Part shown: positions 34,588-59,579 of the stretch, one piece after another
Layout of the letters: each line of letters opens with the position of its first letter
Position numbering within the stretch: the first letter of the stretch is position 1
Assembly (NCBI GenBank): GCA_020629695.1
Contig: JAHDCV010000003.1
Location: forward strand, 45,587-109,586
DNA length: 64,000 bases
Source of the DNA: Acidimicrobiales bacterium
GTDB taxonomy: Bacteria > Actinomycetota > Acidimicrobiia > Acidimicrobiales > SZUA-35
Direction of reading: 5' to 3'
The notes under the pieces: generated by a model
Database searches by the model: none
What the model was told of the DNA's origin: nothing
Seen by the model: only the letters and a program-made list of their open reading frames with translations
Translations under genes and position numbers: made by a program

Positions 34588-35754
34588 GTGCAGGCCCTCG
34601 AGTTCCGCCGAGAAGAAGCCCGATTCGTGGCGTCGGCCGTCGCGTCCCGACTCCGCCCGGGGTCCGGCGCCTCGGTCGGTCCGCTCCATTTCATGGAGCG
34701 AGCACAGGCGCCCGATCTCCCGACCGAGGAGTGGATCCGGGTCCGGACCCGCCTGGCCGGCATCTGTGGCAGCGACCTCGCCACCGTCGAAGGCCGGGCG
34801 GCCCGCTACTTCGAACCGTGGATCACGTTCCCCTTCGTGCCCGGCCACGAGGTCGTCGGCACGACCGAGGACGGTCGGCGCGTGGTGCTCGAGCCGGTGC
34901 TCGGCCATGCCACCCGCGGCTTCGAGCCACCGTTCGACGGCGCCGCCCAGGCCGATGGGGACGACTACCGCCACCTCGTCGGTGGTGATCTCGAGCCGGG
35001 GATCCAGACCGGCTCGTGTGCGTCGACCGGCGGCGGTTGGGCCACCGAGTTCGTCGCCCATCCGAGCCAACTCCACGCCGTGCCGGACGACCTCAGCGAC
35101 GAAGCCGCGGTGATGATCGAGCCCGTCGCCGGAGGCGTGCACGCCGCGCTGCGGGCCGAGGTCTCCGACGGCGCCACCGTCGCCGTGATCGGGGCGGGCA
35201 CGATGGGGCTCGCGACCGTCGCCGCACTGCGCCATCTCACGCCTGCGGGGACGATCATCGCCGGGGCACGTCATCCGCATCAGAAGAAGCTCGCCGCCGA
35301 GTTCGGCGCCGACGTCGTCGTCGACGGCGACGGGATCGGCCGAGCCGTGCGTCGTGCGACGGGCAGCTACATGATCGGCCCCGATCTCTCCGGTGGCGCC
35401 GATGTGGTGATCGACGCGGTCGGCACCAGCGACTCGCTCCGCACCGCCATCGCGATCACGCGGCCACGCGGCCGGGTCGTGCTGTTGGGCATGCCCGGCA
35501 AGGTCTCGATGGAGCTCACGGCCCTGTGGCATCGCGAGACCGAGCTGGTCGGTGCCTACACCTACGGCACCGAGCACCTGCCGGACGGCACCACCCGACA
35601 CTCGTTCGACCTCGCGATGGATCTCGGCCGGTCGGTCGACCTCGGCGCACTCGTGAGCGCGACCTACCCCCTCGCCCGCTACGTCGACGCGCTCGACCAC
35701 GCGGCCAACGCCGGTCGGCTCGGTGCGGTCAAGGTCTGCTTCGACCTGCGCTGA
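34588..35754 (+). CDS. Zn-dependent (MDR-family) alcohol/polyol dehydrogenase, adjacent to mftA
   Basis: GICGSDL, FVPGHEVVG and the Rossmann motif VAVIGAGTMG. It ends 22 nt before mftA. Confidence 0.88.
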   Translation: MQALEFRREEARFVASAVASRLRPGSGASVGPLHFMERAQAPDLPTEEWIRVRTRLAGICGSDLATVEGRAARYFEPWITFPFVPGHEVVGTTEDGRRVVLEPVLGHATRGFEPPFDGAAQADGDDYRHLVGGDLEPGIQTGSCASTGGGWATEFVAHPSQLHAVPDDLSDEAAVMIEPVAGGVHAALRAEVSDGATVAVIGAGTMGLATVAALRHLTPAGTIIAGARHPHQKKLAAEFGADVVVDGDGIGRAVRRATGSYMIGPDLSGGADVVIDAVGTSDSLRTAIAITRPRGRVVLLGMPGKVSMELTALWHRETELVGAYTYGTEHLPDGTTRHSFDLAMDLGRSVDLGALVSATYPLARYVDALDHAANAGRLGAVKVCFDLR

Positions 35755-35776
35755 CCTCGTCGCTACAGTCCTGGGC

Positions 35777-35929
35777 ATGAACCCTCCTGTTGCCGCTCCG
35801 TCGCTCGACACCACCGACGAGTCCGTCACGGCCGACCCCGGCGTCACCGAGGCCGTCGTCGACCCGCTCGTCGACGACGAGCTGCTCGTCGAGGAGATCT
35901 CGATCGACGGGATGTGCGGCGTCTACTGA
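35777..35929 (+). CDS. mftA: Mycofactocin precursor peptide MftA
   Basis: 50 aa ending in ...DDELLVEEISIDGMCGVY, the invariant MftA C-terminus (IDGMCGVY). ATG 35777 lies inside track ORF 35723..35929. Confidence 0.93.
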   Translation: MNPPVAAPSLDTTDESVTADPGVTEAVVDPLVDDELLVEEISIDGMCGVY

Positions 35930-35933
35930 GCCG

Positions 35934-36251
35934 GTGTCCGTCGATCTCGATCAAGCCTGGGAGCTGAACGACCAGGTCGCGCTGCGGCCCGAGCCGTTCG
36001 GCGCGCTCGCCTACCACTACGGCAACCGTCGCCTCACGTTCCTCCGGGCCCATGAGCTCGTCGAGGTCGTCGAACGGCTCGCCGAGACCACCGACGTGGC
36101 CGACGCCTTCGATCGGGCCGGGGTCGCCGAGACCCGTCGGCCCGCCTTCCTCAAGGCACTCGCCGCCCTCGCCGCCGGCGACTTCATCCGTCCCCGAACC
36201 ACCGCGACGGATTCCCGTGGCGCCAGCACGACCGACACCGAGGCCGCATGA
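35934..36251 (+). CDS. mftB: Mycofactocin peptide chaperone MftB (PqqD-like RRE protein)
   Basis: GTG 35934, 4 nt after the mftA stop. WELNDQVALRPEPFGALAYHYGNRRLTFL is the MftB/PqqD-like pattern, and the gene sits between mftA and mftC. Confidence 0.88.
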   Translation: MSVDLDQAWELNDQVALRPEPFGALAYHYGNRRLTFLRAHELVEVVERLAETTDVADAFDRAGVAETRRPAFLKALAALAAGDFIRPRTTATDSRGASTTDTEAA

Positions 36252-37387
36252 CCACCGCTCCCCCGTCGCCCAACCGCCTGACCGATCAGATGAAGGCCGG
36301 GCTCGACGCCCCGATCTGCCTCACATGGGAACTGACCTACGCCTGCAACCTGGCGTGCGTGCACTGCCTGTCGTCGTCGGGCCGTCGCGACCCGCGTGAG
36401 CTGGACACCGCCGAGGCCGAGGCCGTCATCGACGAACTGCAGCGGATGCAGGTGTTCTATGTGAACATCGGCGGCGGCGAACCGACCATCCGTCCGGACT
36501 TCTTCCATCTCGTCGACTACGCGGTCGACCACGGCGTCGGCGTGAAGTTCTCCACGAACGGCTCCCGGATCGATGCGGATGTCGCCCGACGCCTCGCAGG
36601 CAGCGACTACATCGACATCCAGCTCTCGATCGACGGCGCCGACGCCGCGACGAACGACGCCGTGCGCGGCGAGGGCTCGTTCGCGACCGCGATCGAGGCC
36701 ATGGAGCATCTCGCCGCGGCCGACTTCGGCGAGTTCAAGATCTCGGTGGTGATGACCCGCCACAACGTGGCACAGCTCGATGCGTTCCAGACGCTGGCCG
36801 ACCGCTACGGCGCCCAGCTCCGACTCACCCGGCTGCGCCCGTCCGGACGCGGCGTGGACTCCTGGGACGAGCTCCATCTGCGAGCCGAGCAGCAGGTCCA
36901 GCTCTACCACTGGCTGCTCGACCGGCCCGAGACGCTCACGGGCGACTCGTTCTTCCACCTGAATGCACTCGGCCCCGAGAACCTGCCCGGCCTGAACCTG
37001 TGCGGTGCCGGACGTGTCGTGTGCCTGATCGACCCGGTCGGCGACGTCTACGCCTGCCCGTTCGTGCTGCACGACGAGTTCCGTGCCGGCAACGTCCGCG
37101 ACACCGGCGGGTTCACCCGTATCTGGCGTGAGTCGGACCTGTTCACCGAGCTGCGTGAGCCCCAGTCGGCCGGTGCGTGTGCGTCGTGCGGCGAGTTCGA
37201 CGCCTGCCAGGGCGGGTGCATGGCGGCGAAGTTCTTCACCGGACTGCCGCTCGACGGCCCGGACCCCGAGTGCGTGACCGGGCACGGCGAACTCGCCCTC
37301 GCGTCGGCCGGGTCGATCCCTTCGACGACCTCGGACCACTCCAAGCCCGTCCGGGTGGCGTTGTCACCCACCCGTCGACAGGGCTGA
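36248..37387 (+). CDS. mftC: Mycofactocin radical SAM maturase MftC (SPASM domain)
   Basis: LTYACNLACVHC (CxxxCxxC) and C-terminal SPASM cysteines (CGAGRVVC...CPF...CASCGEFDACQGGC). ATGA overlap with mftB. Confidence 0.95.
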   Translation: MTTAPPSPNRLTDQMKAGLDAPICLTWELTYACNLACVHCLSSSGRRDPRELDTAEAEAVIDELQRMQVFYVNIGGGEPTIRPDFFHLVDYAVDHGVGVKFSTNGSRIDADVARRLAGSDYIDIQLSIDGADAATNDAVRGEGSFATAIEAMEHLAAADFGEFKISVVMTRHNVAQLDAFQTLADRYGAQLRLTRLRPSGRGVDSWDELHLRAEQQVQLYHWLLDRPETLTGDSFFHLNALGPENLPGLNLCGAGRVVCLIDPVGDVYACPFVLHDEFRAGNVRDTGGFTRIWRESDLFTELREPQSAGACASCGEFDACQGGCMAAKFFTGLPLDGPDPECVTGHGELALASAGSIPSTTSDHSKPVRVALSPTRRQG

Positions 37388-37495
37388 ACCGCACCGCCTC
37401 CTGCGGGCCTGACGATCCGCCGCCGGCTGCTCTACGCTCCCGCTCGATCGCGATCCACGCGTTCTGGTTCCCGACCCACCGAGAGAGAGACCCCC

Positions 37496-37996
37496 ATGGC
37501 AACGATCACGCTCCGCGGCAACCCGATGGACACCGTCGGCGAGGTGCCGGCCGCCGGGACGACGGCCCCCGACTTCACGCTCACGGGCGGCGACCTCGGC
37601 CCCGTCACGAAGGACTCGCTCGCCGGGAGCCGCGTCGTGCTGAACATCTTCCCCAGCGTCGACACGCCGACCTGTGCGACGTCGGTCCGGACCTTCAACG
37701 CCCGCGCCGCCGAGATGGACAACACCAAGATCGTCAACGTCTCCGCCGACCTGCCGTTCGCCCAGGGTCGGTTCTGTGGTGCGGAGGGCATCGAGAACGC
37801 CTCGACCGCGTCGACCTTCCGCAGCCCCTCGTTCCAGGAGGACTACGGCGTCAAGGTCGGCGAGGGTGTCTTCGCCGGTCTGTGCGCACGGGCCGTGGTC
37901 GTGCTCGACACCGATGGCACGGTGCTGCACAGCGAGCTGGTCGGTGAGATCGCCGACGAACCCGACTACGACGCCGCCATCAACGCCCTCGCCTGA
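37496..37996 (+). CDS. tpx: Thiol peroxidase Tpx
   Basis: APDFTLTGGDL ... LNIFPSVDTPTCATS carries the peroxidatic Cys context. 166 aa, with a GAGAGAGAG SD-like tract upstream. Confidence 0.92.
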   Translation: MATITLRGNPMDTVGEVPAAGTTAPDFTLTGGDLGPVTKDSLAGSRVVLNIFPSVDTPTCATSVRTFNARAAEMDNTKIVNVSADLPFAQGRFCGAEGIENASTASTFRSPSFQEDYGVKVGEGVFAGLCARAVVVLDTDGTVLHSELVGEIADEPDYDAAINALA

Positions 37997-38031
37997 CCGA
38001 GACCCGGTGGCCTGACCGTCGGACGGTCTGG

Positions 38032-38048
38032 CCCGGGTTCACCCCGGG
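38032..38048. terminator. Small GC hairpin between convergent tpx and the lipoprotein gene
   Basis: CCCGGG-TTCAC-CCCGGG. A 15-bp palindrome GACCGTC-G-GACGGTC also lies at 38014-38028. Confidence 0.25.
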
Positions 38049-39071
38049 TCAGATCGTCCAGCTGTCGGCGATCAGGGCGAGGAGCAGCGGTTCGGGGCCA
38101 CTCGTGTCGAGCACGACCCGCACGCTCGTCCAGTCGAGCCCGCCGTAGAGCTCGGTCCCGGCGTTGTGGAACTCCACGACCTTGGCGTCGGGGAAGACCT
38201 CCGCGGTGTTCACGATCGTGTTGCCCCGACTCACGACGACGTCGTGGCCGATCACCTCGGTCGCACTCAGCGCGCCGCTGCTGGCCAGGCCGGCGAGGAA
38301 GTCGGCGATGGTCGACTCGATGGGGTCGCCCGTCCCGTCCTGGGCTCCCCAGACCCGGGTGCCGGTGTCCGTGGCGAGTTCGGACGCCGTCAGCACGACG
38401 TCGTTGTCGATGTCGATGAAGCCGTCGGACGAGAACAACACCCCGTCCGGGCCGACCCGCGCCGCCAGCGCCGTGCGGTCGGAGAGCTCGCCGACGATCT
38501 CGAGCGCCGCCACCGAGGCCACCGAGTCGGGGATGCCTTCGTCCCGGATCGGCGCAGGAACGGCCTGGATGAACGACACCGCGACCCAGCCGGCCCCGAC
38601 CGATCCGTCGGGAAGCACGAGCTGGACCGGCACCCAGTCGCGGCTGCCGTCGTTCGAGATCTCGTTGTAGAGCACGAGGCCCGTGGCGTCGTGGGACAGC
38701 GCCGTGAGGATCTCTCCTTCGAGGCCGGGCGCCGCCCGCACGTTGAGGGTGTCGGTCGCGTCGACGCCGGTCACCCGGAATCGACTGGCGAGTTCCTGCC
38801 ACTCGGCGTCGGGCTCGAGCAGATCGACCGTCTCGGCCAGCGTGGTCGAGGGCGCGAGCGCCGGCTCGACGGTGGTCTCGGTGACCGACGCAGCGTCGCT
38901 CGTCGAGGTCGTGTCGGCCGGTGGCAGTGTGGTGGCCACCTGCGTCGTGGGCGTCGGATCGGCGACCTCGACGTCGCCGCCGCCCGTACACGCCGTGCCG
39001 ATCAGGCCGACCACCGCCACGAGCACGACGATTCGTCGGGGTCGAACACGTGCGGGAGCGCTGTTCACCAT
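38049..39071 (-). CDS. Secreted lipoprotein with an SH3b-like domain, unknown function
   Basis: Signal peptide plus lipobox (VVGLIGTA-C), a Thr/Pro-rich linker, and TLNVRAAPGLEGEILTAL (bacterial SH3-like). Confidence 0.7.
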   Translation of the reverse strand: MVNSAPARVRPRRIVVLVAVVGLIGTACTGGGDVEVADPTPTTQVATTLPPADTTSTSDAASVTETTVEPALAPSTTLAETVDLLEPDAEWQELASRFRVTGVDATDTLNVRAAPGLEGEILTALSHDATGLVLYNEISNDGSRDWVPVQLVLPDGSVGAGWVAVSFIQAVPAPIRDEGIPDSVASVAALEIVGELSDRTALAARVGPDGVLFSSDGFIDIDNDVVLTASELATDTGTRVWGAQDGTGDPIESTIADFLAGLASSGALSATEVIGHDVVVSRGNTIVNTAEVFPDAKVVEFHNAGTELYGGLDWTSVRVVLDTSGPEPLLLALIADSWTI

Positions 39072-39201
39072 GACCGGAGGCTAGAGGCTCGACCCCGCCG
39101 AGTCCGGGACTGCCGACCGGTGGAGGTGCTGTGCCATCATGGCGGCTCCACGGCCGGGACGACGAGCGCCCGCGGTCGACGAAGCCCAGGAGCACCCCCG
39201 A

Positions 39202-41487
39202 ATGGTCGGACTGATCGGCACCCGCGTCGAGCGCAACGAGGATCCCCTCCTCCTCACCGTCGGCGGCAAGTACGTCGATGACCTGGCTCCGGCCGATGCA
39301 CTCCACGTCACCTTCGTGCGATCGACCATGGCCCATGCCCGGATCACCGTCGACACGAGCGATGCGGCCGACGCCGACGGCGTCGTCGGGGTGTTCACCG
39401 CCACCGACCTCGAACTCACGCCGTTCCCGCCGGACATGCCACTGCTCAACCAGCAGATGCTCCGCACCCATCTCGCCACCGACACCGTGAGGTTCGTCGG
39501 CGAGCCGATCGCCGTCGTCGTCACCGATGACCGTGCCGCGGGAGTCGACGCCGCCGAGCTCGTCGTCGTCGACTACGACCCGCTTCCGGCCGTGGTCGAC
39601 CCCGGCTCGTCGATCGGTGCCGATCCGGTCTTCCCTGAGGCCGGGACCAACGTCGTGTTCGCACTCCCGTTCGCCGAGCCCGAGCAGAACCCGATGGACG
39701 ACTGTGAGGTCACCGTCTCGCTCTCGTTCCGCAATCAGCGCCTCGCTCCCTGTCCGCTCGAGCCGCGTTCGACCGCCGCGAGCTGGGACGGCGAACGCCT
39801 CACCCAGTGGTCGACGACCCAGGGTGCGCACGGAACCCGCGATGCCGTCGCCCGCCACACCGGTCTCGATCCCGAGGCCGTCCGGATCATCTGCCCCGAC
39901 GTCGGAGGTGGCTTCGGCGCCAAGAACGGCGGGTACCCGGAGGACATCGTCGTGGCCATGTTGGCCATGCGCCTCGACCGGCCGATGCGCTGGGCCGAGA
40001 CCCGGACCGAGTCGATGCTGGGCCTCGTCCACGGACGCGGCCAGGACTTCGAGGCCACACTCGGCGGCGATCGTGCGGGCAATCTGTCGGTGTATCGACT
40101 CCACATCACTCAGGACGCCGGCGCCTATCCCGCCATCGGTGCCGTGCTTCCGTTCATCACGGCGCAGATGGCCACCGGGGTCTATGACATCCCGACCATG
40201 CAGTTCTCGTCGAACTCCGTGATCACGAACACGGTGCCGATGGGTGCGTATCGAGGTGCCGGGCGGCCGGAGGCGGCCGCCGCGATCGAGCGGATGATCG
40301 ATCTGTACGCGAACGAGATCGGCATGGATCCGGCCGAGGTGCGGCGACGCAACGCCTGGCCCGACGACGCCTTCCCGCTCACGACGTCGGCCGGCGCCAA
40401 CATGGACACCGGCGCCTACACCACGGTGCTCGATCGGGCGCTCGCCGAGGCCGACTACGCCGGCTTGCGGGCACGACAGGCCGAACGCCGCGACGCCGGC
40501 GACGGGCCGCTGCTCGGCATCGGGATGTCGTTGTACGTCGAGATCACGAACCCGATGAGCAACGAGGAGTACGGCTCGATGACCGTGCACCCCGACGGAT
40601 CGGCGACCGTGCTGACCGGATCGTCGGCCCACGGGCAGGGGCACCACACCTCCTTCGCGATGATCGCGTCGGACACCACCGGGATCCCGTTCGATCGCAT
40701 CGAGGTCCGCCACGGCGACACCGACGAGGTCCCCCGCGGCGGTGGAACGGGCGGATCGAAGTCGCTCCAGGTCGGCGGATCAGCGGTCCGAGGCGCGGCG
40801 ATCGAGGCCGTCGAGCGCGGTCGTCAGCTGGCCGCCGACCTGCTCGAGGCGAACCCCGACGACATCACACTCGACGTCACGACGGGCCGCTTCCACGTCG
40901 CCGGAACCCCGGCGGTCGACGTCGGTTGGGGCGAGGTCGCCACGAAGGCGATGGCCGACGCCGAGCCGGACCCCGACTCGGTCGAGGTCCGTGGCCTCAA
41001 GACCGAGCACGACTTCCAGCCCGGTGGGGCGACGTTCCCCTTCGGGGCCCACATCGCCGTGGTCGACGTCGACCCGGCCACCGGTGAGGTCACGCTCGTC
41101 CGGCATGTCGCCGTCGACGACGCCGGCACCATCATCAACCCGATGCTCGTCGACGGCCAGGTGCACGGTGGTCTCGCCCAGGGCATCGCGCAGGCGCTGA
41201 TCGAGGAGTTCGTCTACGACGACGCCGGCAATCCGCTGACGTCGAACTTCATGGACTACGGCATCCCCGCGGCGACCGAGCTGCCGACGTTCGAGCGCTT
41301 CCCGAACGTCACGCCCACTCCCCACAATCCGCTTGGGGCGAAGGGCATCGGCGAATCGGGCACGATCGGCGCCACACCCGCCGTGCAGAACGCCGTGGTC
41401 GATGCGCTCGCGCACCTCGGCGTCACCCACGTCGACATCCCGACCACACCCGAGCGGGTGTGGCGGGCGATGCAGCGGTCGGGCTGA
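39202..41487 (+). CDS. Molybdopterin-binding large subunit of the xanthine dehydrogenase/CoxL family (form II-like)
   Basis: RVERNEDPLLLTVGGKYVDD N-terminus, the active-site loop GAYRGAGRPEA, and the C-terminal GAKGIGESGTIGATPAV. ATG 39202 lies within track ORF 39139. Confidence 0.9.
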   Translation: MVGLIGTRVERNEDPLLLTVGGKYVDDLAPADALHVTFVRSTMAHARITVDTSDAADADGVVGVFTATDLELTPFPPDMPLLNQQMLRTHLATDTVRFVGEPIAVVVTDDRAAGVDAAELVVVDYDPLPAVVDPGSSIGADPVFPEAGTNVVFALPFAEPEQNPMDDCEVTVSLSFRNQRLAPCPLEPRSTAASWDGERLTQWSTTQGAHGTRDAVARHTGLDPEAVRIICPDVGGGFGAKNGGYPEDIVVAMLAMRLDRPMRWAETRTESMLGLVHGRGQDFEATLGGDRAGNLSVYRLHITQDAGAYPAIGAVLPFITAQMATGVYDIPTMQFSSNSVITNTVPMGAYRGAGRPEAAAAIERMIDLYANEIGMDPAEVRRRNAWPDDAFPLTTSAGANMDTGAYTTVLDRALAEADYAGLRARQAERRDAGDGPLLGIGMSLYVEITNPMSNEEYGSMTVHPDGSATVLTGSSAHGQGHHTSFAMIASDTTGIPFDRIEVRHGDTDEVPRGGGTGGSKSLQVGGSAVRGAAIEAVERGRQLAADLLEANPDDITLDVTTGRFHVAGTPAVDVGWGEVATKAMADAEPDPDSVEVRGLKTEHDFQPGGATFPFGAHIAVVDVDPATGEVTLVRHVAVDDAGTIINPMLVDGQVHGGLAQGIAQALIEEFVYDDAGNPLTSNFMDYGIPAATELPTFERFPNVTPTPHNPLGAKGIGESGTIGATPAVQNAVVDALAHLGVTHVDIPTTPERVWRAMQRSG

Positions 41488-41488
41488 G

Positions 41489-49450: not shown

Positions 49451-50668
49451 ATGCCCCTCCCCTCGCTGTCCAAACTCGCCGAACAGAACCCCTGGGCGAC
49501 GAACCCCTGGTTCGAGACCGTCGCCGTTGCACAGCAGCGTGCGAAGAAGCGCCTGCCGTCCTCCGTCTACGGCGCACTGATCGCCGGCGCCGAGGCCGGG
49601 GTGTCGATGAACGACAACCTCACGGCCTTCGACGAGCTCGGCATCCGACCCATCACAGCCGGGCAGTCCGCCAAGCGTGAGCTGGCGACGACCGTCATGG
49701 GTCAGTCACTCTCGATGCCGGTCATGATCTCGCCGACCGGCGTGCAGGCCGTGCACCCCGACGGCGAGGTCGCCGTCGCCCGGGCCGCCGCCGCTCGAGG
49801 CATCCCGATGGGGCTCTCGTCGTTCGCGTCGAAGCCACTCGAGGACGTCATCGATGCCAACCCGTCGACCTTCTTCCAGATCTACTGGGCCGGCGATCGC
49901 GACTCGATGGTCGCCCGGATGGAGCGGGCGAAGGCGGCCGGTGCCGTCGGCTTGATCCTCACCCTCGACTGGTCGTTCTCGCACGGCCGCGACTGGGGCT
50001 CTCCGGCGATCCCGCAGTCGATCGATCTCCAGACGGCGCTCGCGCACGCTCCGGACGTCGCCCGTAAGCCCGCGTGGCTGCTCGACTGGGTCCGCTCCGG
50101 TGCGCTGCCCGATCTCGGTGTTCCGAACTTCGTCACGCCCGGCGACCGGGTGCCCGGGTTCTTCGAGGCCTACGGCGTCTGGATGGGCACACCGCCGGTC
50201 ACCTGGGACGATGTCGCCTGGCTCCGTGAGGAGTGGGGTGGCCCGTTCATGGTGAAAGGCATCAGCCGGGCCGACGAGGCCCGCCGAGCCGTCGATGCCG
50301 GCGCGACCGCCATCTCGGTGTCGAATCACGGCGGCAACAATCTCGACGGTGCGCCCGCACCGATCCGTGTGCTGCCCGAGGTCGTCGACGCCGTCGCGGA
50401 CCAGATCGAGGTCGTGATGGACGGCGGCATCCGCCGCGGCTCCGACGTGGTGAAGGCCGTGGCCCTCGGCGCCAAGGCCGTCCTCATCGGCCGGGCGTAT
50501 CTCTGGGGGCTCGCCGCCAACGGCCAGGCCGGGGTCGAGAACGTGCTCGACATCCTCCGGGGCGGCATCGACGCCACCATGTTCGGCCTCGGCAAGGAGT
50601 CCATCGAGGACCTCTCCCCCGACGACATCGTCGCTCCGGAGGGGTTCTTCCCACCTCGCATCGGCTGA
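49451..50668 (+). CDS. mftD: FMN-dependent alpha-hydroxy-acid dehydrogenase family, MftD-like (pre-mycofactocin synthase candidate)
   Basis: N-terminus NPWFETVAVAQQRAKKRLPSSVY, SVSNHGGNNLDG, GGIRRGSDVVKAVALGA and GQAGVENVLDILRGG match my recollection of MftD/LldD1-type sequences. Confidence 0.8.
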   Translation: MPLPSLSKLAEQNPWATNPWFETVAVAQQRAKKRLPSSVYGALIAGAEAGVSMNDNLTAFDELGIRPITAGQSAKRELATTVMGQSLSMPVMISPTGVQAVHPDGEVAVARAAAARGIPMGLSSFASKPLEDVIDANPSTFFQIYWAGDRDSMVARMERAKAAGAVGLILTLDWSFSHGRDWGSPAIPQSIDLQTALAHAPDVARKPAWLLDWVRSGALPDLGVPNFVTPGDRVPGFFEAYGVWMGTPPVTWDDVAWLREEWGGPFMVKGISRADEARRAVDAGATAISVSNHGGNNLDGAPAPIRVLPEVVDAVADQIEVVMDGGIRRGSDVVKAVALGAKAVLIGRAYLWGLAANGQAGVENVLDILRGGIDATMFGLGKESIEDLSPDDIVAPEGFFPPRIG

Positions 50669-50670
50669 CG

Positions 50671-51864
50671 GTGTCGGCGCTGTTTCCCCGCCGCGACCGG
50701 TTCGAGCTGCCCGACGGAGTCGTCTACCTCGACGGCAACTCGCTCGGCCCGCTGCCCCTCGGTGTCGCCGAGCGGGCGATGGCCACCATTCGGGACGAGT
50801 GGGGCGGCGAGCTGATCCGGGCGTGGAACTCGGCGGGCTGGATGGACGCCCCGCGACGGGTCGGCGACAAGCTCGCGCCGATCATCGGCGCCCCGGCCGG
50901 CTCAGTCGTCGTCGGCGACACCCTCTCGATCAAAGTCGTCCAGGCCGTCGCCGCCGGGTGCCGTCTCCGTCCCGGACGCACGACGGTGCTCTCCGACACC
51001 GGCAACTTCCCATCGGATCTCTACGTCACCCGATCACTGCTCGACCAGCTCGACGGCGAGCATCGACTCCTCACCGTCGATCCGGAGCAGGTCGCTGACC
51101 ACCTCGACGACGAGGTCGCCGTGTTGCTCCTGACCGAGGTCGACTACCGCACCGGCCGCCGCCACGACATGGCCGCGCTCACCGAGGCCGCCCACGCGGT
51201 CGGCGCGATCGTGGTCTGGGATCTCGCACACTCCGCCGGTGCCGTCCCGCTGGACGTCGCCGGCTGCGGCGTCGACCTGGCCGTGGGCTGCACCTACAAG
51301 TATCTCAACGGTGGGCCCGGCGCCCCGGCGTTCATCCACGTGCGACCGGACCTGGTCGACGAGGTCGAGCCGCTGCTCGCCGGCTGGCTCGGCCACGCGG
51401 CACCGTTCGCCATGGAATCGACCTATCGACCGGGCGCTGGCATCGAACGGCTCCGAGTCGGCACCCCGCCGGTCGTGCAGATGGCGATGCTCGACCACGC
51501 GCTCGATCTGTGGGTCGACACCGACGTCGCTGCGCTGCATGCCGCCTCGATCGAGCTGAGTGAACAGCTCATCGCCGAGGTGGGGCGCCGATGCCCGCAA
51601 CTCACGCTCGTGTCACCGAAGGACCCGGACGGGCGCGGCTCTCACGTGTCGTTCGCCGCCCCGATGGCCGAGCAGATCATGCAGGCACTCATCGACCGCG
51701 ACGTGATCGGCGACGTGCGACCGCCGAGCCTCCTCCGCTTCGGCATCACGCCGCTGTATCTCGATGCCGGCGACATCACCGCGGCGGTCGATGCGCTGGC
51801 CGACATCTTCGAGACCGACGCGCAGCACGACCCGAAGTACGCCGCCGCCCGAGCGGTGACCTGA
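50671..51864 (+). CDS. kynU: Kynureninase
   Basis: GTG 50671, 2 nt after the mftD stop. VYLDGNSLGPLP and the PLP-Lys context GCTYKYLNGGPGAPAF. Confidence 0.88.
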   Translation: MSALFPRRDRFELPDGVVYLDGNSLGPLPLGVAERAMATIRDEWGGELIRAWNSAGWMDAPRRVGDKLAPIIGAPAGSVVVGDTLSIKVVQAVAAGCRLRPGRTTVLSDTGNFPSDLYVTRSLLDQLDGEHRLLTVDPEQVADHLDDEVAVLLLTEVDYRTGRRHDMAALTEAAHAVGAIVVWDLAHSAGAVPLDVAGCGVDLAVGCTYKYLNGGPGAPAFIHVRPDLVDEVEPLLAGWLGHAAPFAMESTYRPGAGIERLRVGTPPVVQMAMLDHALDLWVDTDVAALHAASIELSEQLIAEVGRRCPQLTLVSPKDPDGRGSHVSFAAPMAEQIMQALIDRDVIGDVRPPSLLRFGITPLYLDAGDITAAVDALADIFETDAQHDPKYAAARAVT

Positions 51865-51868: not shown

Positions 51869-52852
51869 TCAGGCCTTGCGGGCCAGCACCAGACCGAAGT
51901 CCTCGGCGTGGTCCGTGAACCACTCCAACCCTTCGAAGCCCACATCGGTGAGCTCCTCCGAGAGGCGATCGGGGCGGAACTTCGTGGACACCTCGACCCG
52001 CAGTTCCTCGCCCTCGCCGAATTCGACGTCGAGATCGAGCCGTTCGATCCGAGCGCTCATCGGCATCCGCGCCCGGAGCCGCAGGTCCATACGTTCTTCT
52101 TTGGCGTCCCAGAACGGGATGTAGTCGAAGGCATCCGCATCGAGATCGGCGTCCATCTCGCGGTTGAGCACGGTCACCACGTTGCGGATGAACGCCTCGG
52201 TCACGCCGGTTGCGTCGTGATAGGCGTCGACGATCCGGGAGACCCGCTTCACGAGGTCGACCCCGAGCAGCAGCGAGTCACCCGCTTCCAGGGAGTCGGC
52301 GATCGCACCGAGGAACGCTCGGCGCTCCTCGACGTGGAAGTTGCCGATCGTGCCACCGAGGAACGCGATCAGGCGGGTGCCGCCCTTCGGCAGATGGCGC
52401 AGATGGCGGGTGAAGTCGCCGACGACGGCATGGACGTCCGCGTGCTCGTACCGCTCACCCAGCATGGCACCCGCGTCACGCAGGGTCTGCTCGGACACGT
52501 CCATGATCACGATGTCCCGGAGCTGACCGGTCTCGGCGAAGGCGTCGAGCAGTGTGCGCGTCTTGTCGGAGGTTCCCGAGCCGAGTTCGATCACGGTGTC
52601 GGCACCGGTCGATGCGGCGATCTCGCCGGCACGGCGCCCGAGAATCGAGCGCTCGGCCTCGGTCGGGTAGTACTCCGGGAGCCGGGTGATGGCGTCGAAC
52701 AAGTCCGACCCGCGGTCGTCGTACAACCACATCGGCGGGAGCGTCTTGGGGTGACCGGTGAAGGCACGTCGGATGTCGGTCGACATGGCCTCGTCGGCCC
52801 AGTCGGCGGGGAGGTGCACATCGACATGCACGGGGGTGGACGCGTCGGACAT
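51869..52852 (-). CDS. egtD: L-histidine N-alpha-methyltransferase EgtD
   Basis: TLPPMWLYDDRGSDLFDAITRLPEYYPTEAERSIL and ELGSGTSDKT (SAM site). Confidence 0.9.
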   Translation of the reverse strand: MSDASTPVHVDVHLPADWADEAMSTDIRRAFTGHPKTLPPMWLYDDRGSDLFDAITRLPEYYPTEAERSILGRRAGEIAASTGADTVIELGSGTSDKTRTLLDAFAETGQLRDIVIMDVSEQTLRDAGAMLGERYEHADVHAVVGDFTRHLRHLPKGGTRLIAFLGGTIGNFHVEERRAFLGAIADSLEAGDSLLLGVDLVKRVSRIVDAYHDATGVTEAFIRNVVTVLNREMDADLDADAFDYIPFWDAKEERMDLRLRARMPMSARIERLDLDVEFGEGEELRVEVSTKFRPDRLSEELTDVGFEGLEWFTDHAEDFGLVLARKA

Positions 52853-52863
52853 GTGGGGACCTC

Positions 52864-54168
52864 TCAGGCGTCGGTGGCGAGGCGGACACCGGAGAGGTGC
52901 CAGCGGGTGTGCAGATGGAAGAAGTTGCGATACGTCAGGCGAGCGTGCCCGGGTGGGGTGAAGGCCGAACCGCCACGGAGCACGTGCTGGTTCGCCATGA
53001 ACTTGCCGTTGTATTCACCGATCGCCCCCTCGGGCGGCCGGTAGCCGGGGTACGGCCGGTAGGCGGACTCGGTCCACTGCCAGGCGGTGTCGAAGACCTG
53101 CCGGAGCGACGTCGTCTCGGTCGCGGCGCCCGGTGGATGCCAGGCGATGTCCCGATCGATCCCGGCCGCGACCGCAGCCCCATCGCTGGACTCGGCGATG
53201 GTCGTGTTCACCGCCGCCTCCCACTCGAACTCGGTCGGGAGTCGGACGCCGGCCCAGGTCGCGTATGCGTCGGCCTCGTAGAACGAGACGTGCACGACCG
53301 GTTCGTGCGGGTCGACCGGCCGGCGCCCGGTGAGGGTGTGGACCGACCAGTGGTCACCTTCGTCCCGCCAGTAGAGCGGTGCACGCCACCCTTCACCCCG
53401 ACTCTTGTACCACCCGTCCGACAGCCACAGTTCGGGCCGGTCGTAACCGTCGTCGGCGATGAACTCGAGCCACTCCCCCGCCGTCACGAGTCGGTCGGCC
53501 AGTCGGAACGGTCGCAGGAGCGCCTGGTGGAACGGACCCTCGTTGTCGAAGTGGAAGTTCGCGGTGTCGGCGACACCGATGTCGACGATGTTGCCGGCGA
53601 ACTCCAGCCACTGGAGCGGACCCGGATCGGCGGCCGCGACGTGCGACTCGCGTACGTAGGCGTCGTCGACGACGTTGCCGCTGACGACGTGCTTCGCGTC
53701 CATCAACAGCAGCTCCTGGTGCTGCTCCTCGTGGTGGGTGCCGAGTTCGATCAGCGTGGTGAGCGACGACGGATCCGCGATCGACTCGAGGAGGGCGACC
53801 ACGCGCTCGTCGACGGCAGCCCGGTAGGTGCCGATCTCGGCGGCGCTCGGGCGGGTCACGAAGCCGCGCTCGGGTCGGGGGTGCCGTTCACCGACGGCGT
53901 CGTAGTAACTGTTGAACAGATAGGCGTAGTTCGGATGGAACCACTCGAACCCCGGCTCGTGTGGCAGCAACAGGAACTGCTCGAAGAACCAGGTGATGTG
54001 GGCTCGGTGCCACTTGGTCGGGCTGACGTCCGCGATCGTCTGGACGGTCTGATCAGCCTCGGACAGCGGCGCGGCCAGCGCTTCGGTGCGTTCACGAACG
54101 GTGCGGAATCGTTCGATCAGGGCCGAACGCACGTCGGCGTCGGCGGACAGGGCGGGAGACGGAGTCAC
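52864..54168 (-). CDS. egtB: Ergothioneine sulfoxide synthase EgtB (DinB-like + FGE-like domains)
   Basis: SPTKWHRAHITWFFEQF, HHEEQHQELLL (iron His triad region), and a C-terminal FGE-sulfatase-like domain RGGSAFTPPGHARLTYRNF. Confidence 0.9.
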   Translation of the reverse strand: MTPSPALSADADVRSALIERFRTVRERTEALAAPLSEADQTVQTIADVSPTKWHRAHITWFFEQFLLLPHEPGFEWFHPNYAYLFNSYYDAVGERHPRPERGFVTRPSAAEIGTYRAAVDERVVALLESIADPSSLTTLIELGTHHEEQHQELLLMDAKHVVSGNVVDDAYVRESHVAAADPGPLQWLEFAGNIVDIGVADTANFHFDNEGPFHQALLRPFRLADRLVTAGEWLEFIADDGYDRPELWLSDGWYKSRGEGWRAPLYWRDEGDHWSVHTLTGRRPVDPHEPVVHVSFYEADAYATWAGVRLPTEFEWEAAVNTTIAESSDGAAVAAGIDRDIAWHPPGAATETTSLRQVFDTAWQWTESAYRPYPGYRPPEGAIGEYNGKFMANQHVLRGGSAFTPPGHARLTYRNFFHLHTRWHLSGVRLATDA

Positions 54169-54266: not shown

Positions 54267-54303
54267 GTGCCCGGCCGGTTGGAGGGGGCAACCGGCCGGG
54301 CAC
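54267..54303 (-). terminator. Strong GC hairpin downstream of the flotillin gene
   Basis: GTGCCCGGCCGGTTG-(7 nt)-CAACCGGCCGGGCAC is a 15-bp perfect stem, 17 nt after the stop at 54320. There is no U-tract, as in I-shaped actinobacterial terminators. Confidence 0.6.
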
Positions 54304-54319
54304 GAACGGTGACGCAGGG

Positions 54320-55666: not shown

Positions 55667-55704
55667 GCTTGTGTCTCCTCTTTCTCCGTTGTTCCGACTT
55701 CTGG

Positions 55705-56364
55705 CTAGGTCTCGAGCTCGGCGAGCGACGCGACCAGGGCGGTCCCGTTCTCCATGGCCACGACGACGATCGGCGCGCCCCGGCCGAAGGTCTCGGTGCT
55801 GCGTTCGTCGGCGTGGCGGGCCACCAGGAACTGCGGCTGGCCGCCGAGCGAGATCCGCACCCGTCCCCGGCGTCCGGGTTCGATCGGCAGGACCACCGCA
55901 CCGGCCCGGCCGGTCAGCGTCCGTTGCGTCACGTTGGAATCGACCGAGCTGCGACGCAGCGCCGAGAAGAGGAGCGAGTTCGTGACCGCAGCCACGCCAC
56001 CGACCAGAAGCGCCGACAGCAGTGTCACGGCGGAGGCGTAGTCGAGGAGCGTGAAGATGGTCCCGGCGATGCCGAAGAAGGCCGAGCCGAACACGACCGA
56101 ACGGAACGACAACAGCCCCGCGAGTGTGTCGCCGACCATGCTCCCGCCGGCGCCGACCGCGATCGAGTCGTCACCGGGCGCGTCGATCGGCGTGCCGTCG
56201 GCGTCCAGCTCGATGCCCTCGACGTCGAGCACATCGGCATCGCCGACGTCGAGGCCGCCGGCATCCGCGTCGAGATCGCCAGCGAGCTCGCCCAGACCGC
56301 CGAAGATCATCGGTCCGGCGAAGGCCACTCCGAAGATCGTCATCGCCACGTAGAACCAGATCAC
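55705..56364 (-). CDS. NfeD/YqiJ-like membrane protein
   Basis: TM helices plus a C-terminal OB-like NfeD segment (GRAGAVVLPIEPGRRGRVRISLGGQPQFLVAR). GTG 56364 has GGAGGA 8 nt upstream; the track start 56469 would overlap padR. Confidence 0.75.
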   Translation of the reverse strand: MIWFYVAMTIFGVAFAGPMIFGGLGELAGDLDADAGGLDVGDADVLDVEGIELDADGTPIDAPGDDSIAVGAGGSMVGDTLAGLLSFRSVVFGSAFFGIAGTIFTLLDYASAVTLLSALLVGGVAAVTNSLLFSALRRSSVDSNVTQRTLTGRAGAVVLPIEPGRRGRVRISLGGQPQFLVARHADERSTETFGRGAPIVVVAMENGTALVASLAELET

Positions 56365-56440
56365 GGTCGCGCTCCTCCACTCGTTGCGTCGCTCAACGCC
56401 GCGGCCATCGATCGGGTTCCCGCCGGGGCCGACCCGAACC

Positions 56441-56779
56441 TCACGATCGGGCCAACACGGTGTCGACACCGTTGCGCACGGCGTTCCAATCGGCGGTCCA
56501 GGCGGCGAGCACGTCGCGCCCGATCTCGGTGATCTCGTAGACCTTCCGGGCCGGCCCGCTCTCGGAGGGGGTGAGGTGACCCTCGATTCGCCCTCGTGAC
56601 TCGAGCCGCTTGAGCACGAGGTAGATCGAGCCCTCGTTCGGCACCGCGAGGCCGTCGGCGTTCAGCTTCTGCACCAGGGCGTAGCCGTAGTCCGGCTCCT
56701 TGCCGATCGACGCGAGCACACACATGTCGAGCACGCCCTTGAGGATCTGTGCGTGGTGCACTTCGATGCGCGATGCCAT
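56441..56779 (-). CDS. PadR-family transcriptional regulator
   Basis: ILKGVLDMCVLASIGKEPDYGYALVQKL ... SIYLVLKRLESRGRIEG. Confidence 0.9.
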   Translation of the reverse strand: MASRIEVHHAQILKGVLDMCVLASIGKEPDYGYALVQKLNADGLAVPNEGSIYLVLKRLESRGRIEGHLTPSESGPARKVYEITEIGRDVLAAWTADWNAVRNGVDTVLARS

Positions 56780-56804
56780 GTATGCATGGTACTCATGATT
56801 GAGG

Positions 56805-56824
56805 AGTAGTCAACCACGACTACT
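56805..56824. promoter_or_regulatory. Inverted repeat AGTAGTC-AACCAC-GACTACT upstream of padR (candidate operator)
   Basis: 7-bp perfect arms, 26-45 nt upstream of the padR ATG, in a locally AT-rich stretch. Confidence 0.4.
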
Positions 56825-56865
56825 AGCTGCGGTGTGCGAACGGCCCGGTCAGCGAACGCGGACGG

Positions 56866-57774
56866 TCAGTCGGCGAGCAGCGCCCGCGCTCGACCGAACG
56901 TCTCGATCGTGCGCAAGGCGTCCGCCTGCTCCGGGTCGGCACAGCGGATGACGACGTCGTCGACACCGGCCGCAGCGAGCTTCCGGAGTTCGTCGGCGAT
57001 CTCCTCGGCGCCGCCCGAGAGCAGCGCCTCGCGCGGCATCCCGCGATAGCCGGCGGAGACGATCGCGTCGGCTCGGCGATGCGCCGTCGGCCCGTCGATG
57101 TCGGCCACGACGTCACGCCGGAGCGCGATCCGAGGTGTGCGTCCGTGCCGCTCGCAGGCCTCCCGGTACCGGTCGGCGCCAAGGCGGAGCATGTCGCCGC
57201 CCACGCCGGGGCTGGCATACCAGGCGCCCCAGCGGGCGGCGCGCTCGATCGGCTGCTCGCCCACCCCGGAGCCGATCCACCACTCGTGGCCACCGGCCGG
57301 CACCGGACGGGTCGACGCCCCGACGACGTCGAATCGCTCGGAGGTCACGGTCTCGCCCCGGAGCAGGCCGTCGATCACTTCGATCGCCGCGTCGGTCGTG
57401 GCGCCCCGCCGGGTGAGGTCGGCCCCGAACGCGCCGAACTGCGCCTCACCCGAGCCGATCCCCGTCTGCACGATGATCGGAGCGTCGAGCATCGATCCGA
57501 GGGTGCCGAGCTGTTCGGCGACGAGCACCGGCGACCACAGCGGCAGCAGGAACAGTGCGCCGGCGGGACGGGACGGATCCCACTCGGCGAGGAGTCGACC
57601 GAGCACGGGTGTGTTCTGGATGTACTGACCGTCCGGGCCTGCGTTGTGGCGGTCGCCGATGGTGAGGTGGTCCAGATCGACGTCCCGAGCGACCCTCGTG
57701 CGCTCGACCATCCAGGCGATCGCCTCACGCCCCGGACGACCGATCGACGACGACACCGAGATCCCGACTCGCAT
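56866..57774 (-). CDS. LLM-class (luciferase-like) flavin/F420-dependent oxidoreductase
   Basis: 302 aa with a TIM-barrel LLM pattern (HLTIGDRHN..., GIGSGEAQF). Confidence 0.8.
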   Translation of the reverse strand: MRVGISVSSSIGRPGREAIAWMVERTRVARDVDLDHLTIGDRHNAGPDGQYIQNTPVLGRLLAEWDPSRPAGALFLLPLWSPVLVAEQLGTLGSMLDAPIIVQTGIGSGEAQFGAFGADLTRRGATTDAAIEVIDGLLRGETVTSERFDVVGASTRPVPAGGHEWWIGSGVGEQPIERAARWGAWYASPGVGGDMLRLGADRYREACERHGRTPRIALRRDVVADIDGPTAHRRADAIVSAGYRGMPREALLSGGAEEIADELRKLAAAGVDDVVIRCADPEQADALRTIETFGRARALLAD

Positions 57775-57780
57775 GCCGAG

Positions 57781-57814
57781 GAGTCTGACACGGAGGGCCC
57801 GGCCGACCAGACTC
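57781..57814. promoter_or_regulatory. Inverted repeat GAGTCTG-(20 nt)-CAGACTC in the 45-bp divergent LLM/LLM intergenic region
   Basis: 7-bp perfect arms spanning almost the entire gap between starts 57774 (-) and 57820 (+). Confidence 0.3.
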
Positions 57815-57819
57815 TCCGC

Positions 57820-58896
57820 ATGTCCGACATCGATCGACCGTCGCTGCGCGTCGAGTCACTCATGCCCCTCGGCAAGCTCGACCCGGGCCTCCGCGAACCC
57901 GACACCCCGCTCGACATCCGCGAGGTCGGTGGACTCGCCGCCACCGCGGAATCCGTCGGTCTCGACGCCGTGCTCGTCGAGGAGACGAAGGACGACCCGT
58001 TCCAGCTGCTCGCGGTGGCTGCCGGCCCGACGGACCGGATCGGTCTCGGCACCTCGGTGGCGATGGCCTTCCCGCGGTCGCCGACGGTCACCGCCATGTC
58101 GGCGTGGTCACTCCAGAAGCTGTCGGGCGGGCGATTCATCCTCGGTCTCGGCACCCAGGTCCGAGCCCACATGACCCGTCGCTACGGCTACGACTGGCAC
58201 GCACCCGCGCCGTGGATGCGCGACACCGTCAACGCGATCCGAGCGGTGTGGAACACCTGGCAGACCGGCGAGCAGCTTGCGTTCACCTCGGACCACTTCG
58301 ACCTCGACCTGATGGTGCCGCTGTTCGACCCGGGCCCGATCGAGCACCCCGACATCCCGATCCACGTCGCCGCGATCGGGCCGAACATGTGCGGCGTCGC
58401 CGGTGAGGTCGCCGACGGCGTCCGCCTGCACCCGGTGTGCACGCCGCACTTCATCGACAGCGAGATGAAGCCTGCGGTGGCGAAGGGTGCCGCGCGATCG
58501 GATCGAGACCCCAGCACGGTCGAGTGGTGCATGAAGCCGCTCATCGGCACCGCCGCCACCGAGGCCGAGTTGGCCCGTGTTGTCGACACCGTCCGGGCAC
58601 GGACCGCGTTCTACCTGTCGACCCCCAGCTATCGCCGCACGTTCGCCGCCCACGACTGGCTCGACCTCGCCGAGCAGGCGTCGGTCCTCAGTCGACAGCA
58701 GCGATGGGACGAGCTGCCCGACCTCGTACACGACGAGATGCTGCACACCGTCGCGACGATCGGCACCCACGACCAGATCGGCGGGTTGCTGCGAGAGCGT
58801 TACGCCGGCCGGGTCGACCGGATCGAGTTCTCCATCCCCATCCGTGGTCCGGAGGACGCCGAACGGTTCCAGCAGATCCTGACCGAGGTCCGGTGA
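57820..58896 (+). CDS. LLM-class F420-dependent oxidoreductase
   Basis: ATG 57820 within track ORF 57079. RIGLGTSVAMAFPRSP ... GRFILGLGTQVRAHMTRRYG is typical of the F420-dependent LLM subgroup. Confidence 0.85.
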   Translation: MSDIDRPSLRVESLMPLGKLDPGLREPDTPLDIREVGGLAATAESVGLDAVLVEETKDDPFQLLAVAAGPTDRIGLGTSVAMAFPRSPTVTAMSAWSLQKLSGGRFILGLGTQVRAHMTRRYGYDWHAPAPWMRDTVNAIRAVWNTWQTGEQLAFTSDHFDLDLMVPLFDPGPIEHPDIPIHVAAIGPNMCGVAGEVADGVRLHPVCTPHFIDSEMKPAVAKGAARSDRDPSTVEWCMKPLIGTAATEAELARVVDTVRARTAFYLSTPSYRRTFAAHDWLDLAEQASVLSRQQRWDELPDLVHDEMLHTVATIGTHDQIGGLLRERYAGRVDRIEFSIPIRGPEDAERFQQILTEVR

Positions 58897-59579
58897 CCGA
58901 CCTCGCTCGACGCCGATCCGCCGAGGTGGCGACGGGTTCGTGGTTGTTCGTGCCGCTCGGCTCGACCGAGCAGCACGGCCCCCACCTTCCGCTCGCCACC
59001 GACACGCTCATCGCGACCGCGCTGGCCTCGGCGATGGCCGAGCGGGTCATCGAGACGGGAGCACCCGCCACGGTCGCGCCACCGCTCCCCTACGGCGCAG
59101 CCGGAGAGCACCAGTCGTTTCCCGGCACGCTCTCCATCGGCCACGACGCGCTGCAGACAGTGCTCGTCGAACTCGCGCGCTCGGCCCGCCATCACCACGA
59201 CGCCGTCGTGTTCGTGAACGGCCACGGCGGCAACCATCCGACCGTGGTCGAGGTGGCCGACCAGCTCACCGCCGAAGGCCACCGGGTGGCGATGGCCGGG
59301 CCGAGCGACCCCGCCGGCGACGCCCATGCCGGCCTCACCGAGACCTCACTCATGCTCCACCTCCACCCGGATCTCGTCGACATGCAGCGGGCGGAGCCCG
59401 GCAATCGCGAGCCGCTCAGCGCGATCCTGCCCGCCATGCGCGACGGCGGGATCGAGGTCGTGTCCCCGAACGGTGTGCTGGGCGATCCGGTCGGAGCCAC
59501 CGCCGAGCACGGTGCGCGACTCTTCCGCGAGATGATCGAGCGCGCCGCGTCGAGCATCGCCGAACAGCTCGCTCGTTGA
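58893..59579 (+). CDS. mftE: Creatininase-family protein, MftE-like (mycofactocin precursor peptidase candidate)
   Basis: GTG 58893 (GTGA overlap with the LLM stop). LFVPLGSTEQHGPHLPLATDT, YGAAGEHQSFPGTLSI, FVNGHGGN, DAHAGLTETS and SPNGVLGDP. Confidence 0.78.
   Translation: MTDLARRRSAEVATGSWLFVPLGSTEQHGPHLPLATDTLIATALASAMAERVIETGAPATVAPPLPYGAAGEHQSFPGTLSIGHDALQTVLVELARSARHHHDAVVFVNGHGGNHPTVVEVADQLTAEGHRVAMAGPSDPAGDAHAGLTETSLMLHLHPDLVDMQRAEPGNREPLSAILPAMRDGGIEVVSPNGVLGDPVGATAEHGARLFREMIERAASSIAEQLAR

Follow-up and report, generated by a model that had tools for sequence, protein, structure and literature searches.

A mycofactocin system encoded in loosely linked modules in an Acidimicrobiales bacterium

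The mycofactocin (mft) genes of an Acidimicrobiales bacterium were characterized in a stretch of 64,000 nucleotides of contig JAHDCV010000003.1 (assembly GCA_020629695.1, positions 45,587 to 109,586), which was analysed at its full length and is referred to here as the window. This region very probably holds most of a complete and functional mycofactocin system, formed by loosely linked modules that are encoded on the same strand and extend over approx. 31 kb. The first module is formed by a zinc-dependent alcohol dehydrogenase gene (ZnADH) followed by mftA, mftB and mftC, and the second by mftD alone, with a kynureninase gene located 2 nt after it in the window species. The third module, on the same strand, includes the genes for an LLM-class (luciferase-like) oxidoreductase, MftE, the product of a short open reading frame (ORF; g58), a glucose/sorbosone dehydrogenase-like protein (GSDH), an N,N-dimethyl-4-nitrosoaniline (NDMA)-dependent alcohol dehydrogenase (ADH), a MoxR-like ATPase, a VWA protein and MftF; the last two of these genes lie past the 3' end of the window. 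The canonical contiguous mftABCDEF block was not found, since 12.1 kb separate mftC from mftD, 8.2 kb mftD from mftE, and approx. 5.9 kb mftE from mftF. Other genes occupy approx. 11.4 kb (from a CoxL-like gene through a sulfatase gene) and approx. 8 kb (from kynureninase through the LLM genes) between the modules. The identity of the genes, their integrity, their order and the conservation of this order were directly observed.

Genes were called from the G+C content at the third codon position (GC3), and the 62 candidate genes of the window, i.e., 61 called genes and an extra ORF at 33109-34260, were scored against NCBIfam, the source of the curated equivalog models and cutoffs for MftA to MftG and MftR. 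This way of calling genes is weak on the loci of lower G+C content (L012, L016, L020 and L070), for which tblastn coordinates were used. Related loci were obtained by scanning reference genomes with MftC; the best 80 are listed, the genome of the window not being among them, with a highest MftC identity of 81%, and the statements on relatives made below refer to the matches listed. The mft genes and those associated with mftF are the following:

35777..35929, + strand: mftA, mycofactocin precursor peptide, 50 aa (TIGR03969, 46.8 bits versus a cutoff of 25, E 1.8e-12)
35934..36251, + strand: mftB, precursor-binding chaperone, 105 aa (TIGR03967, 107.3 bits versus 33, E 3.7e-31)
36248..37387, + strand: mftC, radical SAM/SPASM maturase, 379 aa (TIGR03962, 618.6 bits versus 265, E 2.7e-186)
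49451..50668, + strand: mftD, FMN-dependent premycofactocin synthase, 405 aa (TIGR03966, 668.2 bits versus 470.85)
58893..59579, + strand: mftE, creatininase-family peptidase that releases the modified C-terminal dipeptide, 228 aa (TIGR03964, 276.2 bits versus 172)
62329..63477, + strand: NDMA-dependent (nicotinoprotein) Zn alcohol dehydrogenase, ATG at 62329 with an alternative GTG at 62347 (TIGR03989, 509.4 bits versus 440)
63485..64000, + strand: MoxR-like AAA ATPase, 5' part, cut by the window end; it extends to window-equivalent 64528 on the conspecific contig L087 (347 aa)
approx. 64618-65436 (window-equivalent), + strand: VWA/CoxE gene, 3' of MoxR, on conspecific contigs
approx. 65433-66866 (window-equivalent; L087:4610-6043), + strand: mftF, GT2 glycosyltransferase, 477 aa (TIGR03965, 338.6 bits versus 280)

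As an earlier note on this DNA had described, mftA, mftB and mftC are contiguous at 35777-37387, behind the ZnADH gene. The coordinates, the family scores, the GTG start codon of mftB at 35934, which is 4 nt past the mftA stop codon, the ATGA in which the start of mftC overlaps the end of mftB, and the CxxxCxxC motif of MftC (CNLACVHC) were all confirmed. The C-terminus of the MftA peptide (...EEISIDGMCGVY / IDGMCGVY) shows the invariant terminal Cys-Gly-Val-Tyr of the system, and the identical mftA gene in other assemblies carries PF23709 (MftA).

The same note placed an MftD-type enzyme 12 kb and an MftE-type creatininase-family protein 21 kb downstream of these genes, and left two explanations for them: a functional but scattered pathway, or paralogues recruited to other chemistry. 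Scoring with hidden Markov models (HMM) had been set beforehand as the refuting test, and both proteins passed the trusted cutoffs. The product of 49451-50668 passes TIGR03966 and is below the cutoff on both LldD models (230.2 versus 550 and 249.6 versus 376); likewise, the product of 58893-59579 passes TIGR03964 and is below the cutoff on the creatininase model TIGR04448 (125.3 versus 235), and its nearest named homologues carry the MftE annotation. Given that the equivalog cutoffs were passed by wide margins while the LldD and creatininase models were failed, MftD and MftE are considered true orthologues and not recruited paralogues. As a small correction, the start codon of mftE is a GTG, located within a GTGA overlap with the stop codon of the upstream LLM gene. 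The scattered but functional pathway proposed in that note thus finds support in five intact genes of equivalog level, in the three assemblies described below and in the synteny with relatives.

The note had also reported that neither mftF nor mftG is present in the 64 kb, and this stands for the window: no MftF was detected in it, either by the family scan of the 62 genes or by tblastn in six frames, for which a verified MftF from a Streptomyces locus (460.6 bits versus a cutoff of 280) served as the query (best E 0.96). It does not stand for the genome. In a related locus (L011) mftF lies shortly downstream of mftE and a MoxR gene, and the window ends inside MoxR; therefore, mftF was suspected to lie past the edge. 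A look-up with the ADH protein of the window (62329-63477) gave five contigs of the same species, from five sequencing runs, that match the last 2.7-3.2 kb of the window at 99.76-99.94% identity. All five continue into MoxR and VWA/CoxE, and mftF is reached by only the two longest, L087 and L088. L087 is 99.94% identical to positions 60824-64000 of the window (2 mismatches in 3177 nt) and L088 is 99.91% identical. In L087 mftF starts approx. 1.4 kb past position 64000, with a 4-nt overlap with the VWA gene; L088 has a 477-aa GT2 protein at the mftF position, and the family score given above is that of the L087 copy. Downstream of mftF in L087 there is a gene for a large coiled-coil protein, followed by one for an RNase T/GIY-YIG protein, and the same pair is found in the relatives L100-L102. 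Since mftF is present on conspecific DNA that is 99.94% identical, its apparent lack is an artefact of the window edge, and the suggestion of the note that aglycone premycofactocin would be the product falls with it.

The arrangement of the mft genes was then compared with that of related loci. The closest ones (72-81% MftC identity) are almost all from metagenome-assembled genomes (MAGs) of Acidimicrobiia, Acidimicrobiales, Ilumatobacteraceae, Microthrixaceae and 'Ca. Aldehydirespiratoraceae'. For the listed loci in which mftC is flanked by 8 kb or more on each side, the layout is as follows:

Acidimicrobiia-type, 36 loci: mftD, mftE and mftF all within 10 kb of mftC in 2; none of the three in 21
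Other actinobacteria (Streptomyces, Amycolatopsis, Thermomonospora and others), 9 loci: all three within 10 kb in 7; none of the three in 0

Contiguity, which the note had taken as the norm, thus holds for Mycobacterium and most of the other actinobacteria sampled (7/9) but not for Acidimicrobiia (2/36). Judging from these comparisons, scattered mft genes are what is usually seen in Acidimicrobiia and do not signal that the pathway is being lost; as a loose layout is normal for the lineage, the finding itself is an ordinary one.

The synteny with relatives, a check proposed in the note, revealed modules shared with L011, L020 and a sister species. The latter (L098; GCA_020630195.1, a 111-kb contig) shows the order mftD-egtD-egtB-flotillin-x-PadR-...-LLM-mftE-GSDH-ADH-MoxR-VWA-GT2, and its proteins are identical to those of the window or L087 by 97% (ADH), 87% (LLM), 83% (VWA), 81% (MoxR), 67% (MftE) and 48% (MftF). 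The more distant relatives L100-L102, with MftE proteins that are 57-59% identical, show mftE-ADH-MoxR-VWA-GT2. The mftE to mftF module is also found without the ADH in L011, where the order is GT4-QueG-ZnADH-mftABC-QueF-mftE-MoxR-x-MftF (MftF, 299.4 bits on TIGR03965), and with extra spacing in L013 and L017. Accordingly, these comparisons point to mftE-ADH-MoxR-VWA-mftF as the conserved unit. At the other end, the GT4-QueG-ZnADH-mftABC context of the window is shared by a sub-clade formed by L011, L012, L014, L016, L018, L020 and L027, whereas L007 has ZnADH-mftABC. Within 10 kb, L020 shows the order of the window, i.e., mftABC, g40, mftD, egtD/egtB and mftE, with mftD inverted, so the window looks like an L020-like arrangement that was expanded by other genes. 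In L022 (OZ242337.1, 'Ca. Aldehydirespiratoraceae'), L013 and L017, mftABCDE are nearly contiguous. Taken with the window, the loci L022, L013, L017, L011, L020 and L098 are alike in their MftC (72-81% identical where they were retrieved with mftC), in the ZnADH-mftABC and mftE-(ADH)-MoxR-VWA-mftF modules and in the common dispersal of mftD, mftE and mftF; the spacing and the inserted genes vary by species.

With respect to MftF, it was observed that this protein is only 48% identical between the sister species (L087 4610-6043 versus L098 15832-17235), compared with 97% for the ADH and 81-83% for MoxR and VWA. Judging from these values MftF appears to be diverging unusually fast, and this might reflect a different glycosylation.

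Regarding MftG and MftR, no scanned gene of the window matches the three MftG models or the MftR model at E <= 1e-5, and a six-frame tblastn of the window with a near-cutoff MftG from a Streptomyces locus (383.1 versus 387.45) gave a best E of 0.43. The genes called on the conspecific contigs over the 9 kb that follow the window include none of the GMC type, and no homologue of the Streptomyces MftG was found within 10 kb of mftC in the Acidimicrobiia-type loci. It has been reported that approx. 25% of the genomes that contain mftC are devoid of mftG, and what replaces it there is an open question (PMC11778925); for this reason its absence near the cluster is unremarkable, and MftG and MftR are not defining features of a mycofactocin system.

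Some observations do weigh against a complete and functional system in this bacterium. mftD and mftE are tightly spaced with genes outside the mft set (kynureninase and LLM), so other roles are possible for their products; mftF is known from same-species contigs of other samples and not from the molecule that carries the window; and the window lacks an MftR-type regulator and MftG, with no GMC-type gene called in the next 9 kb. The first of these points could be understood if the MftD- and MftE-like genes were paralogues that act in other chemistry, e.g., mftD together with the kynureninase and mftE together with the LLM protein, given that mftD and the kynureninase gene are 2 nt apart and the LLM gene and mftE overlap by 4 nt, which suggests co-translation with non-mft genes. 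Nevertheless, this explanation is quite improbable: both proteins are more than 100 bits above the MftD and MftE equivalog cutoffs and fail the LldD and creatininase models, and the two genes are the sole copies in the window. In addition, MftD is 71-78% identical to its counterparts in the Acidimicrobiia loci where mftD is closer to mftC (L008, L009, L013, L017 and L020-L023) and 64-70% identical to those of other actinobacteria, and the identities of MftC show a similar lineage pattern, being also closer to Acidimicrobiia. Neither of the two couplings is general, since the kynureninase gene does not follow mftD in the sister species, where egtD is directly after it, and in L100-L102 the position of the LLM gene is taken by that of a HupE/UreJ-type membrane protein while mftE-ADH-MoxR-VWA-mftF is constant.

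Another possibility is that the pathway is scattered and functional but truly devoid of mftF, so that only aglycone premycofactocin is made. The family scan and the tblastn search of the window are in agreement with it. Even so, we assign it a very small probability, in view of the MftF encoded approx. 1.4 kb past the end on L087 and L088, with a 99.9% identical overlap, and of the three further conspecific contigs that show the same continuation as far as each of them reaches. The sister species and more distant relatives carry an mftE to mftF module as well, and in a previous survey MftF was always found alongside MftC; indeed, MftC, MftB and MftF always co-occur (Haft 2011, PMC3023750).

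A pathway in decay, in which the scattered genes are remnants heading for loss, would account for the dispersed genes and for the lack of a dedicated MftR-type regulator nearby. There is hardly any likelihood in this idea either, considering that all the mft ORFs in the window are full length, that their HMM alignments run from end to end, and that their GC3 (0.86-0.90) is typical of the called coding genes in the window. Moreover, the modules are kept across several species, and the 97% identity of the ADH between the sister species indicates purifying selection.

Finally, the dispersed mftC-mftD-mftE layout is genuine. These genes are found in the order of the window on single contigs in three independent assemblies, two from Logan (contigs of 35.5 and 31.8 kb) and the NCBI MAG JAHDIC010000021.1 (GCA_020630995.1, 39.4 kb), at no less than 99.8% identity to the window over the parts compared. 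Consequently, a separation produced by assembly or binning, i.e., by chimeric joins of unrelated contigs, is the least credible of the explanations, even though the source is metagenome-derived and several assemblies break at approx. 60.8 kb in the DUF4214-containing gene, because besides these three assemblies the sister species shows the mftD to mftF layout on its 111-kb contig and the G+C content is uniform across the region (approx. 70%; 0.67-0.72).

For the system proposed here, the enzymology, the co-expression of the genes and the product are extrapolated from the mycobacterial pathway (PMC11778925, PMC6529628). By analogy, MftB would present MftA to MftC, which would oxidatively decarboxylate and cyclise the C-terminal Val-Tyr of the peptide; the modified dipeptide would be released by MftE, and its oxidative deamination by MftD would give rise to the redox-active premycofactocin, which would then be glycosylated by MftF. 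The mature cofactor is expected to re-oxidise the tightly bound NAD(H) of the TIGR03989 ADH embedded in the third module, for which MoxR and VWA are probably maturation or activation factors. This ADH (62329-63477) is predicted to be the mycofactocin-dependent client enzyme; its family is confined to species that contain mycofactocin (Haft 2011, PMC3023750), and 16 of the 36 well-flanked Acidimicrobiia-type loci have a homologue of it no more than 10 kb from mftC. Scans for consensus sigma-70 promoters and intrinsic terminators (34-52 kb and L087) gave matches no more frequently than in shuffled sequence; at 70% G+C they are uninformative, and therefore the operon boundaries rest on gene spacing alone.

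A further proposal, which we regard as unlikely, is that mycofactocin in Acidimicrobiia was reorganised around its client, with late maturation co-regulated with one dehydrogenase through the mftE-ADH-MoxR-VWA-mftF unit, and that neighbouring enzymes (LLM or CoxL-like) might re-oxidise mycofactocinol instead of MftG. The evidence for either enzyme as a substitute of MftG is thin, and the coupling of LLM to mftE is limited to the window species and its sister.

The other genes that form part of the modules or lie next to them are the following:

34588..35754, + strand: Zn-dependent alcohol dehydrogenase of the medium-chain dehydrogenase/reductase (MDR) type, which ends 22 nt before mftA
50671-51864, + strand: kynureninase gene, which starts 2 nt past the mftD stop codon (TIGR01814, 255.6 bits versus a cutoff of 246.4)
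51869-54168, - strand: egtD-egtB pair, ergothioneine biosynthesis (299 and 532 bits, both above cutoff)
57820..58896, + strand: LLM-class oxidoreductase of the TIGR03617 subfamily, annotated as F420-dependent (347.4 bits versus 278.15)
59602-60207, + strand: ORF between mftE and the GSDH-like gene, with no family match and absent from the sister species
60234..62279, + strand: GSDH (glucose/sorbosone dehydrogenase-like) and DUF4214 protein (Pfam GSDH and DUF4214; TIGR03606, 41 bits, below cutoff)

The ZnADH upstream of mftA scores below the cutoff on all Zn-ADH families, with a best value of 88 bits for L-idonate 5-dehydrogenase, and it is outside TIGR03989 (41 bits versus 440). Homologues that are 65-71% identical are located directly 5' of mftA/B in eight relatives (L007, L011, L012, L014, L016, L018, L020 and, inverted, L027). 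This gene is likely co-transcribed with mftA, and its product is a candidate client or partner of the system. Downstream of mftC, the genes mentioned in the earlier note, i.e., tpx, the CoxL-like gene, that of a GGDEF-EAL sensor and others, were recovered by the family scan; a family-less ORF of 325 aa, the putative lipoprotein of the note, lies between tpx and the CoxL-like gene, and the GGDEF-EAL gene is followed, before mftD, by the genes of a glyoxalase-fold protein, a pentapeptide-repeat protein, a PrsW-like protease and a sulfatase. The CoxL-like gene (39202-41487, + strand) encodes a molybdopterin oxidoreductase large subunit that scores best on glyceraldehyde dehydrogenase alpha (605 bits, under the cutoff of 790 for that model), and no CoxM/CoxS-type partner was found among the window genes scanned. 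Homologues of this protein, 63-66% identical, are encoded just 3' of mftC in L007 (3443-5716, 17 nt after mftC) and L012 (12322-14580).

Between mftD and mftE the order of genes is kynureninase, egtD and egtB, flotillin, a PadR regulator and two LLM-class oxidoreductases. The arrangement of mftD and kynureninase as a conserved unit was considered and rejected, as none of the 80 related loci listed has a kynureninase homologue close to its mft genes, and in the sister species none follows mftD; the kynureninase gene looks like a species-specific insertion. The egtD-egtB pair has no adjoining egtA, egtC or egtE, and is found again, no more than 10 kb from mftC, in L012, L014, L018 and L020, as well as beside mftD in the sister species.

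The LLM gene upstream of mftE, a neighbour at the genus level, has a counterpart in the sister species (L098 8928-10004) that is 87% identical and shows the same 4-nt overlap with mftE. Its candidacy as a conserved mft accessory was weakened, because this coupling is found in the window species and its sister and not in L100-L102. Divergent TIGR03617-like LLM genes (33-37% identical) are located beside mftA, within approx. 650 nt of mftB, in L010, L013, L015, L017, L021 and L022, and besides these six there are two more approx. 4 kb from mft genes. The copy in L022 (8354-9235, - strand) is the sole divergent one that was scored on TIGR03617, with 321 bits versus a cutoff of 278. It is possible that LLM proteins are linked to mycofactocin in a lineage-specific way.

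The ORF at 59602-60207 probably does not represent a genuine conserved gene. In the conspecific NCBI MAG an insertion of approx. 155 nt near 59.8 kb, formed by 100 unaligned nt and a repeat of 59777-59831, reduces the called product from 201 to 135 aa; Tandem Repeats Finder (59.4-62.4 kb) detected nothing that accounts for this strain-level indel. The following GSDH/DUF4214 gene is present in the sister species (69% identity) and absent from L100-L102, where the ADH directly follows mftE, and its product is probably a passenger. A break at one common position inside this gene, approx. 60824-60848, is seen in several short-read assemblies, and the sister species has a second DUF4214 protein nearby that matches part of it at 41-43% identity; a repeated DUF4214 segment is the probable cause of these breaks.

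Elsewhere in the window, the start of the dcw (division/cell-wall) cluster is found at 2-3944 (- strand), with mraZ, rsmH, ftsL and a class B penicillin-binding protein gene, which supports a chromosomal and not a plasmid location. A 169-aa ORF at 4966-5475 (- strand), with residues 72-126 that resemble the HNH nuclease region of IscB/Cas9d (E 1.5e-11, far under the family cutoffs), most likely codes for a stand-alone HNH endonuclease.

Judged by all the membership criteria that can be tested, these genes form a mycofactocin system, which differs from the mycobacterial cluster only in the arrangement of its genes, and by analogy its chemistry and function are expected to be the known ones. It has in common with the mycobacterial mftABCDEF (Rv0691A-Rv0696 / MSMEG_1421-1426) the six families, the C-terminal CGVY of MftA and the tight mftA-mftB-mftC arrangement; in contrast, mftD, mftE and mftF are 12, 21.5 and approx. 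28 kb away from mftABC, no MftR or MftG was found nearby, and mftE and mftF are not adjacent but flank the module of the client dehydrogenase. The clusters of Thermomicrobium roseum and of a Haloterrigena turkmenica plasmid also show a TIGR03989 ADH within or next to the mft genes (Haft 2011, PMC3023750); however, they were described as single neighbourhoods, whereas here ADH, MoxR and VWA lie between mftE and mftF, with mftABC and mftD elsewhere. By its description, the ethanol/methanol dehydrogenase Mno/Mdo of M. smegmatis (MSMEG_6242; locus MSMEG_6236-6242) is likewise an NDMA-dependent Zn alcohol dehydrogenase; together with the mft genes it is needed for growth on ethanol, which links it genetically to mycofactocin (PMC6529628). 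The dehydrogenase locus and the mft cluster are far apart in M. smegmatis, while in the window species the dehydrogenase locus is physically intermingled with mftE and mftF. We presume that the MSMEG_6236-6242 locus also encodes MoxR-like and VWA proteins.

A literature search found no paper linking mycofactocin with Acidimicrobiia, and searches on mycofactocin with luciferase-like proteins and on 'Aldehydirespiratoraceae' gave nothing relevant. What appears mildly new is the finding that, as far as the loci compared indicate, Acidimicrobiia as a rule have scattered mft genes and an mftE to mftF module centred on the client. The mftF gene that begins approx. 1.4 kb past the edge is a caution that a gene absent from a fixed window is not thereby absent from the genome. 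The contiguous mftABCDEF picture drawn from mycobacteria fails in Acidimicrobiia, where mftABC is usually alone and the client ADH and MoxR/VWA are bracketed by mftE and mftF; genome mining that expects contiguity would therefore under-call or mis-call the mycofactocin capacity of this abundant environmental class.

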